Virus record (IMG/VR): IMGVR_UViG_3300043567_001092
Length of the DNA stretch: 64,000 nucleotides
Origin: an uncultured virus (IMG/VR IMGVR_UViG_3300043567_001092)
Lineage: Duplodnaviria > Heunggongvirae > Uroviricota > Caudoviricetes
Strand: one strand, 5' to 3'
Positions 12,592 through 13,879 of this stretch are shown here, piece after piece. Each line of letters starts with the position of its first letter. Within the stretch, counting starts at the first letter, position 1. The position numbers were made by a program, and so were the translations under genes. The notes below the pieces were generated by a model. The model did not search any database. It was not told the DNA's origin and saw only the letters and a program-made list of their open reading frames with translations.

Positions 12592-12867
12592 ATGCCTTGG
12601 TTTACTTACAAATGCAAAGAACATGGAGAGTTCAAGGCATCACTATCTAAAAGAGAGCAGACTCAAAAATGTCCAGAATGTGATAACACTTGTTATTCTG
12701 TGATAAAGTCTGCTTCTATATCTATAGTTGAAAGATTAGATAATGGGGCAATGGCAAGAACAGTTGAAAGATTACACAACATTGAAGATATTATGAACGA
12801 AAGAGCTGATAAACATAGTGCAGAGAATAGTAGCCCAATAGAGGAGTTGGAAAATGAGCAAAATTGA
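12592..12867 (+). CDS. FmdB-like zinc-ribbon protein
   Basis: MPWFTYKCKEHG...CPEC. Confidence 0.7.
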   Translation: MPWFTYKCKEHGEFKASLSKREQTQKCPECDNTCYSVIKSASISIVERLDNGAMARTVERLHNIEDIMNERADKHSAENSSPIEELENEQN

Positions 12868-13879
12868 TGTTGGTTTTGGCATACCGCTTTATATGCAACC
12901 ATATTGGGATGAATCCGGAGAATATTTTCCTCACGCACTAGATAGCGTATTTATCAATGAAGAGCTTAGCTATACTCATGGAGACATTGACGTATCTTTA
13001 GAGAATATAATTAGAATAACACACGAAATGGTCGGTAATGCTGTCACAGAAGGTTCTACTATAGTGGTAGGAAATGGCGCATCTCAAGTAATTTCTTCCG
13101 TAGGGTACGCTTCTAAAGCTTTGGGATATGATGATTTCAGCTTAAACGCACCGTTCTGGGGTAGATTAGAGTTTCTATTGACAGTTGGCCAAAAGGCGTA
13201 TGATTTTACAAATGCTAAACCAAGAAAAACTCCTAAAAAACCAATATTTGATTTTGTAACTAGACCAAATAATCCGGATTCAAGTATGAGAGGGGCGGAT
13301 GAATCCTTCTCGGTTGTTGACATGTGCTATAATTGGCCTCAGTACGTCCCTCAAGTAGAAAAAGGCGATTATGATGTTATGATTTTTAGCCTAGCGAAGG
13401 CTACAGGACATGCTGGAACAAGAATTGGCTGGGCAGTTGTAAAAGATCCAGAAGTTGCAGCAATAATGAAAGATTATATGGAGCTATCAACATGTGGAGT
13501 GTCGGTAGATTCTCAAAGAAAAGCTGATGGAGTCTTCACAAGAATCCTGTCTTTATCAAGATTCTTTAAATCTCCGTTTGATTACGCAAAAGAAGAGCTA
13601 TCATTAAGATGGGAAGTATTTAAAAATGGCGTAAAAGACAATACTGACTTTAAACTACTAAATCAACATGGTATGTTTGCATTTTGTGAATTGTCATCTA
13701 ATGATGAGCCTGTTGGTTTTATGGACAACAAATATGACTTAATAGTTACCCCAGGAAGAAATCTAGGATTGACAAGCGATTCAAATTGCTTTAGAATAAA
13801 TCTTGGATGTTCTGAAGAGAACTTTACCAAAATGATGGGGTCTTTACGTGCAAATAAACCTAGTATCACTGGAAATTGA
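12854..13879 (+). CDS. PLP-dependent aminotransferase, tryptophan aminotransferase (TAA1/TAR)/alliinase family
   Basis: [57 protein letters not shown] (PLP lysine), GVSVDSQ, FRINL. Confidence 0.85.
   Translation: [341 protein letters not shown]

Follow-up and report, generated by a model that had tools for sequence, protein, structure and literature searches.

A compact enzyme of the TAA1/alliinase family carried by a tailed phage of lake water

A 64,000-nucleotide stretch of DNA from an uncultured tailed phage (IMG/VR record IMGVR_UViG_3300043567_001092), hereafter called the window, carries a gene for an enzyme of 341 amino acids that is predicted to use pyridoxal 5'-phosphate (PLP). The enzyme was confirmed to be a real member of the TAA1/alliinase family, which starts auxin synthesis in plants and makes the allicin of garlic, and to stand apart from the ordinary aminotransferases HisC and AspAT. 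It belongs to a compact subfamily (282-357 amino acids) whose members are nearly all from tailed phages. In the window's own phage, a lake-water phage of about 157 kb, the gene is an accessory gene of the early/replication module, and in phages it is under purifying selection. A preliminary description, made from the sequence alone, had already pointed to the plant family.

When compared with Pfam, the protein matched Alliinase_C (PF04864) with an E value of 9.8e-47 and 160 bits (cut-off 22), residues 4-278 being aligned to profile positions 1-291 of 363. The match to Aminotran_1_2 (PF00155) was far weaker (5.3e-12, 46 bits) and covered residues 157-328 only. All 13 NCBIfam aminotransferase models stayed far below their cut-offs, the best reaching 27.8 bits against a cut-off of 350 and hisC 22.9 against 276.55. 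The Alliinase_EGF domain (PF04863) was not found in the enzyme with Pfam, Alliinase_C beginning at residue 4, and the first 20 residues were without a hydrophobic core as judged by eye, no signal-peptide program having been run. The Alliinase_C-only build fits the earlier proposal that the protein is shaped like cytosolic TAA1. One observation weighs against taking the Pfam match at face value: the Alliinase_C model also fired in 5 of 14 control genomes, which marks its cut-off as permissive. Hence, the family case rests on the score margin, the ranking of PDB entries and the tree.

In a sequence search of the entire PDB, Arabidopsis TAA1 ranked first (4e-35) and garlic alliinase second (4e-24); the match after these had an E value of 0.24. 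An AlphaFold2 model built from 48 relatives reached a mean predicted local distance difference test score (pLDDT) of 94.4 and a predicted template-modeling score (pTM) of 0.92. Foldseek placed this model closest to TAA1 chains (2.7e-27, TM score 0.83-0.85) and to alliinase (3.8e-24, TM score 0.82), with chains of kynurenine aminotransferase I (KAT-I) coming next (4.6e-16). In HMMER alignments, residues 49-78, 156-164, 177-202 and 215-221 of the phage enzyme fell on the corresponding stretches of TAA1. The plant motifs given in the preliminary description were therefore essentially right.

Phylogenetic trees were computed with class-I aminotransferases as outgroup. FastTree was run on 227 rows, for which 5 of 185 proteins were dropped (a fragment of the window protein and four proteins shorter than 250 amino acids) and 10 outgroup sequences were taken from two metagenome-assembled genomes (MAGs). 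IQ-TREE with the LG+C20 model was run on 78 rows with 6 outgroup aminotransferases, and a careful search covered 41 rows with 4. The family was split from the outgroup in every case, with support of 95 (starred) in the 227-row tree, 100 (starred) in the 78-row tree and 100/100 in the 41-row tree. Given the split of 100/100 and the NCBIfam scores far below their cut-offs, an identity as an ordinary bacterial class-I aminotransferase (HisC, AspAT) was rejected. The enzyme does resemble KAT-I/glutamine transaminase K, AspAT, HisC and MalY-type lyases in being of fold type I and in using the same Lys/Asp/Asn/Tyr/Arg chemistry, but its matches to KAT-I and the class-I aminotransferases are far weaker (46 versus 160 bits in Pfam; E values of 0.24 or more in the PDB sequence search). 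One clade held every named plant and protist sequence (98, 98 and 98/94 in the trees of 227, 78 and 41 rows, all starred), and the phage protein lies outside it. The description of the gene as a phage gene of the TAA1/alliinase family thus stands as far as family membership goes; the enzyme is not an orthologue of plant TAA1. For the same reason, the phage gene is not a recent capture from plants or algae.

The family proved to be widespread in viruses. Out of 5.8 billion proteins, a word-based search retrieved 47 matches. With a fragment of the window protein (100% identity) set aside, the 19 best were unnamed metagenome proteins of 32-50% identity, some from contigs 30-169 kb long; plant TAR2 proteins followed with 31-35% identity. 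By an exhaustive HMMER search, 794 cluster representatives were found at E <= 1e-3 and 100 at E <= 1e-30, and the top 150 matches are for the most part 300-360 amino acids long. Longer or fused forms were absent among 2301 candidates, which is weak evidence. A scan of IMG/VR with a profile-derived pattern led from 55 pattern matches to 36 loci, two belonging to the window's own phage and 34 further ones, and clustering by neighboring genes assigned the relatives to at least seven unrelated phage gene layouts. The viral lineage suspected in the preliminary description is thus supported, and it is larger than the sequence alone could reveal. Nine representative loci were annotated. Seven contained typical phage genes (terminase, portal, major head protein, head-maturation protease, tail fiber, ribonucleotide reductase (RNR), ThyA, primase-helicase, integrase), one had a match to endonuclease VII only, and one looked bacterial. 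Among 43 metagenome loci, the neighbors were annotated in 11, with phage genes in eight and no matches in three. On a 33-kb contig (L075:35-12844), the enzyme gene is accompanied by an integrase, an Erf-like annealing protein, a transposase and a tail-fiber gene; hence the family also occurs in a temperate-looking phage or prophage. Four other metagenome loci (L087, L090, L091 and L092), in which the enzyme match was partial or spread over several short frames and open reading frames (ORFs) were sparse, look like intron-bearing eukaryotic homologues.

Cellular prokaryotes yielded very little. A scan with one narrow peptide pattern, covering one genome for each of 185,579 species, returned 11 pattern matches and two relatives, located on MAG contigs of 8.8 and 4.0 kb. 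One relative lies on a Bdellovibrionales MAG contig that looks bacterial, with GGDEF, beta-helix and DUF4423 genes beside it. When, as a check, a profile was run over 400 other Bdellovibrionota and 400 other Acidobacteriota genomes, these being the phyla of the two relatives, no relative was found in either set. Among the GenBank phages (INPHARED), from which records of the phage's own genome were possibly excluded, neither tblastn with the protein nor megablast with 20 kb gave a match.

The gene is a genuine part of its phage. Two IMG/VR contigs, each from a different metagenome, carry the same 1026-nucleotide sequence; one equals the window over 15,180 bases, and the other differs from it at 764 of 21,023 positions in an ungapped comparison. 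The window matches a 121.8-kb IMG/VR contig, and a virus record (G001) of 157,572 bp, rated 98% complete, contains all 31-letter words sampled from the window. Half or more of these words are present in each of 14 lake-water runs; no RNA run is among the 24 runs listed as holders of window words. Contigs of four further lake-water runs, not flagged as possible sources, showed no difference from the window. The upstream junction is bridged by contigs X10 and X11 and the downstream junction by X8, X9, X10 and X11, so that the misassembly considered in the preliminary description was rejected. In composition the gene (GC 0.372, GC at third codon positions 0.269) is like its neighbors. An artifact, be it a faulty assembly, contaminating DNA of cellular or eukaryotic origin or a gene captured from a plant or alga in a single recent event, is therefore next to impossible given these identical contigs, bridged junctions and composition, together with the 34 further viral loci and the position outside the eukaryote clade. 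The only point in its favor is that PMC9309667 and PMC11214133 call the family almost exclusively eukaryotic.

The phage family of the window was collected by SbcC alignment, which gave 31 loci (L094-L124). All 31 have a GroEL-like gene upstream of sbcC, at GC contents of 31-70%, and a Zn-ribbon gene was detected between the two in 21. Seven loci, two of them from the window's own phage, have the enzyme gene and the other 24 lack it; of the 14 loci closest to the window, those with GroEL identity of 52% or more, seven carry it and seven do not. Relatives lacking the gene include some with 68% GroEL identity, and in several of them the end of the Zn-ribbon gene abuts the start of sbcC. Because it occurs in 7 of 31 loci and always in the same place, the enzyme gene is regarded as an accessory gene at a fixed slot between the Zn-ribbon gene and sbcC. 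Where relatives carry it, the gene is maintained: the ratio of nonsynonymous to synonymous substitution rates (dN/dS) was 0.038-0.16 in 8 of 10 pairs of related phage copies, dS being saturated in the other two. Accessory occurrence at one slot and purifying selection agree with the earlier suggestion of a phage auxiliary enzyme. The enzyme gene shares with classical phage auxiliary metabolic genes its accessory and patchy occurrence, its place among early/replication genes and its purifying selection.

Conservation of the active site was analyzed in an alignment of 69 sequences (35 phage, 14 of the plant TAA clade, 6 of the plant TAR3/4 clade, 12 protist and 2 bacterial or unknown). Y40, H57, G75, P138, N140, P141, D156, Y159, W161, K182, G185, R190 and G192 were invariant in all 69, and R314 was kept in 66. 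K182 aligns to K217 of TAA1, and the residues of the phage enzyme correspond to those of alliinase as follows: Y40 to Y92, the aromatic residue at position 102 to Y165, N140 to N207, D156 to D225, Y159 to Y228, K182 to K251, R190 to R259 and G9 to G64. By analogy with class-I aminotransferases and alliinase, we take K182 to be the Schiff-base lysine and D156 the aspartate that holds the pyridine nitrogen of PLP. N140 and Y159 are presumably the ligands of O3' of PLP, and R190, together with Y40 of the partner subunit, those of its phosphate; R314 and G9 presumably bind the alpha-carboxylate of the substrate, and position 102 is assumed to contribute an aromatic side chain that stacks against the ring. 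Binding of PLP and activity on an alpha-amino acid can be taken as almost certain.

Our leading reading, for which we see about as much chance of being right as of being wrong, is that of an amino-acid:2-oxo-acid aminotransferase. The protein would be a fold-type-I enzyme, probably a homodimer, with PLP bound through K182 as a Schiff base, and may transaminate a bulky aromatic or sulfur-containing amino acid. The amino-acid and keto-acid pools of the infected cell would thereby be shifted during infection, possibly to the benefit of the phage. Three results lean towards transamination: the protein has an Alliinase_C-only build without EGF domain, as in TAA1 and TAR1, TAA1 ranked above alliinase both by sequence and by fold, and Y164 and F275 carry the TAA-clade state in all 35 phage sequences. 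TAA1 and TAR1 are proven transaminases, according to PMC9309667.

Several points weigh against this reading. The phage subfamily is basic at position 104, two residues past the ring-stacking aromatic in an active-site loop (33 R and 2 K of 35), and none of the 32 eukaryote sequences is. Likewise, G273, the residue of all 35 phage sequences at a position occupied by P in plants, and G318, also specific to the subfamily, set it apart from TAA1. At 11 columns the plant TAA clade differs from the TAR3-4/alliinase clade, and there the phage signal is mixed: the majority of phage sequences has the TAA state at three of them, the alliinase-clade state at two (positions 13 and 74) and neither at the rest. 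At one of these columns, position 317, the L of the alliinase clade is a close second to I in phages, and counting it would raise the alliinase matches to three. Fold does not separate a transaminase from a lyase either, because KAT-I, the next-best fold, is also a cysteine-conjugate beta-lyase and thus does both. No metabolic partner gene recurs beside the enzyme gene across the seven layouts. Finally, a classical auxiliary metabolic gene of a phage is a copy of one of its host's genes, whereas cellular prokaryote homologues of the enzyme are almost absent; with these nearly missing, the boosting of a host pathway is not an obvious logic. A gene so common in phages and so nearly absent from cellular prokaryotes probably brings a reaction new to the infected cell, not more of one already present. 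The near-invariant basic residue R104, peculiar to the phage subfamily, suggests that the substrate or co-substrate probably differs from that of TAA1.

A C-S beta-lyase of the alliinase or cysteine-conjugate type is a serious alternative to the aminotransferase, although we consider it rather unlikely. From an S-substituted cysteine (cystine, cystathionine, S-alkylcysteine or its sulfoxide) it would produce pyruvate and ammonia along with a reactive sulfur compound, and would supply carbon, nitrogen or reduced/persulfide sulfur during infection. The kinship to garlic alliinase in sequence and fold, the catalytic set held in common with it (including Y40/Y92 and G9/G64), the alliinase-clade state of the phage majority at positions 13 and 74, and the KAT-I chains among the next-best folds, given the lyase activity of KAT-I, are all consistent with such an enzyme. 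So is the IscA/ErpA-type Fe-S gene that adjoins the enzyme gene in one layout (L007/L029); this neighbor, however, is encoded on the opposite strand and was seen in no more than 2 of the 36 viral loci. The 'ferredoxin' label (phrog_3704) of a recurrent upstream neighbor has no support from Pfam, NCBIfam or PDB, and no cysteine or sulfur gene recurs beside the enzyme gene. The missing EGF domain and the higher rank of TAA1 in both the sequence and the fold search also argue against a lyase.

That the enzyme is a true tryptophan aminotransferase, whose indole-3-pyruvate would feed the production of the auxin IAA (indole-3-acetic acid) by the infected bacterium and so act on nearby algae or plants, we regard as quite improbable. 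TAA1 is the closest solved relative, some relatives carry the automatic public label 'L-tryptophan--pyruvate aminotransferase', and TAA1 is promiscuous for aromatic amino acids (PMC9309667). The phage enzyme nevertheless falls outside the eukaryote clade (98/94), and R104 and the other subfamily-specific residues are unlike TAA1. No match to FMO-like (PF00743), Pyr_redox_3 (PF13738), TPP_enzyme_N (PF02776) or Aldedh (PF00171) was found in the 98%-complete genome G001, nor was any such gene seen beside the enzyme gene in 20 related loci with annotated neighbors. As the phage genome is without a YUCCA-like, IPDC-type or aldehyde-dehydrogenase gene, nothing ties the enzyme to auxin. A benefit within one lytic cycle would also be hard to see. 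A role in auxin production is thus unlikely.

Some PLP enzymes act in phage base-hypermodification pathways. The enzyme gene lies in replication/recombination modules, next to GroEL and SbcC in the window and in other layouts near RNR, ThyA, NT5C, a DUF3310 'nucleotide kinase', RNase H and an exonuclease. It might hence be asked whether the enzyme serves DNA or nucleotide modification or counter-defense instead of free-amino-acid metabolism. We consider this improbable. No pathway partner such as a base kinase, a glycosyl or amino-acid transferase or a hydroxymethylase recurs, R314, taken to bind the alpha-carboxylate, is conserved along with the full amino-acid-type site, and close relatives that share the replication genes do without the enzyme.

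Among characterized proteins, Arabidopsis TAA1, TAR1 and TAR2 (PDB 3bwn, 3bwo) are most similar to the phage enzyme, with the same Alliinase_C-only build, PLP lysine and motifs; identity to plant TAR2 is about 31-35%. The phage protein differs from TAA1 in length (341 versus 391 amino acids), in its C-terminal stretch of about 60 residues, which has no sequence alignment to TAA1, in R104, G273 and G318, in the lack of a YUCCA-type partner and in its carrier, a phage of lake bacteria instead of a plant. Garlic and onion alliinase (EC 4.4.1.4; PDB 1lk9, 2hor) and plant TAR3 and TAR4 are of the same family and fold, with catalytic residues that correspond one to one. Unlike alliinase, the phage enzyme has no N-terminal EGF-like domain and is much shorter, and its match to alliinase is weaker than that to TAA1. 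The protist homologues with Alliinase_C only (Tetraselmis, Pellita, MMETSP; choanoflagellates, haptophytes and cryptophytes in the literature) are single-domain members of the family and similarly identical to TAA1; these fall in the eukaryote clade with the plants, whereas the phage proteins fall outside.

The trees bear on the origin of that eukaryote clade, which was nested in phage and metagenome diversity in all three outgroup-rooted trees. Its named members were 22 plant rows, Pellita, Tetraselmis, an MMETSP transcript and a EukProt transcript; its unnamed rows were labelled 'eukaryote' after the first tree. The nearest neighbors of the clade were the Bdellovibrionales MAG protein and P0064, a protein encoded on a 318-kb contig without match in IMG/VR or the plasmid collection (97/88, starred, in the 41-row tree). 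In the 41-row tree the window's own phage group came next, at 93/88 (not starred). Four unnamed metagenome rows were basal in the family; for two of these, P0112 had no IMG/VR relative and P0161 returned no locus. In an approximately unbiased (AU) test on the 41 rows, a tree with all non-eukaryote rows as one clade was not rejected (log-likelihood difference 16.06, p 0.11). The suggestion of the preliminary description that the phage gene matters for the origin of TAA1 is made plausible by the nesting in the rooted trees, and falls short of proof in that simple sister groups were not rejected. We tentatively put forward, as a possibility somewhat on the doubtful side, that the TAA1/alliinase family is rooted in the prokaryote-virus world with tailed phages as its main reservoir, and that eukaryotes acquired it once from the phage/bacterial pool.

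The arrangement of the enzyme gene and its neighbors is given in Table 1. The ORF is intact and, as had been noted from the sequence, overlaps both neighbors: its start overlaps the end of the Zn-ribbon ORF by 14 nucleotides, and its end is overlapped by 32 nucleotides by the SbcC-like ORF. The gene content of the window is that of a tailed double-stranded DNA phage, with large terminase, SbcD, sigma factor, helicases and a 1246-residue DNA polymerase, as well as UvsX-like recombinase, primase, DnaB-like helicase, PhoH, GroEL, SbcC, RuvC-like resolvase and tail-fiber proteins. A tRNA scan of the 64-kb window found none. The Zn-ribbon protein also had a weak match, below cut-off, to an 'RPWMISH' domain model. 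Two very large ORFs of 1663 (43567-48558, minus strand) and 1730 amino acids (55552-60744, minus strand) were without PHROG match; the stretch of the latter has a GC content of 44-45%, compared with about 34% elsewhere in the window.

Table 1. Enzyme gene and adjoining features of the window (position 1 is the first nucleotide of the window)
Feature	Position	Strand	Basis
GroEL-like chaperonin gene, first in the row GroEL / Zn-ribbon / (enzyme) / SbcC	10809..12590	+	phrog_5725, 1.3e-78
Zn-ribbon protein gene, 91 aa, upstream neighbor	12592..12867	+	Zn_ribbon_8 and FmdB-type matches, below cut-off
GAGGAG, Shine-Dalgarno-like hexamer, 7 nt 5' of the enzyme ATG	12841..12846	+	read from sequence
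TAA1/alliinase-family (Pfam Alliinase_C) PLP enzyme CDS, 341 aa	12854..13879	+	ORF list, ATG start, intact
K182 codon, predicted PLP Schiff-base lysine	13397..13399	+	alignment to TAA1 K217 and alliinase K251
SbcC-like ATPase gene, downstream neighbor, GTG start	13848..15557	+	phrog_77, 2.2e-44

Several neighbors of the enzyme gene in other phages were recorded. Directly 3' of it, a TnpB/Cas12f-like transposase gene (Cas12f1-like_TNB, phrog_506) was found at L032:9171-10253 (plus strand) and also in L031, which may be a vehicle of spread. The IscA/ErpA-type Fe-S assembly gene mentioned above (TIGR00049, 83.6 bits) lies at L029:8973-9287 (minus strand) and also in L007. A protein of 200-211 amino acids is encoded directly 5' of the enzyme gene at L019:7379-8011 (plus strand), where the two overlap, and at L062:1497-2096 (plus strand); its label 'ferredoxin', based on phrog_3704 (E 1e-50), was dropped because Pfam, NCBIfam and PDB gave no match. 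A pair formed by a MoxR-like ATPase (phrog_1297) and a DUF2201/VWA putative metallopeptidase (phrog_1314, for which the label reads 'HNH endonuclease') was seen near the enzyme gene in three loci of different layouts (L038:2549-3661 and 6439-7854; L065:7181-9441; L068:7585-9895).

In the literature, the tryptophan aminotransferase clade is placed 'almost exclusively' in plants by PMC9309667. In 2016, the closest bacterial and archaeal homologues of TAA1 were about 25% identical, with E values of 2e-8 and 9e-7, and those of choanoflagellates 30-31% identical (PMC4754409); bacterial outgroups as distant as this served in the dispute about the source of plant TAA. The debate over charophytes has been reviewed (PMC5611494). 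By term look-up, neither 'virus' nor 'phage' occurs in PMC10015382 and PMC11214133. Among the leading literature matches, no phage or virus member of the family was found, although non-eukaryote members may be included in SI Table S2 of PMC11214133 and in Figure S1 of PMC4754409; the one paper that joins phage auxiliary metabolic genes, indole-3-acetic acid and aminotransferase refers to a fungal tryptophan aminotransferase.

The enzyme thus represents an odd kind of auxiliary gene, widespread and conserved in phages and with almost no counterpart in cellular prokaryotes. Its compact size, together with the confident model, makes it an easy target for assays. For the debate on the origin of TAA, a large phage-borne subfamily with 31-35% identity to plant TAR2 provides much closer non-eukaryotic relatives, and these make the direction of transfer testable. 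If the tentative scenario of a single acquisition by eukaryotes is true, the first plant auxin enzyme and the garlic alliinases would derive from that phage/bacterial pool.

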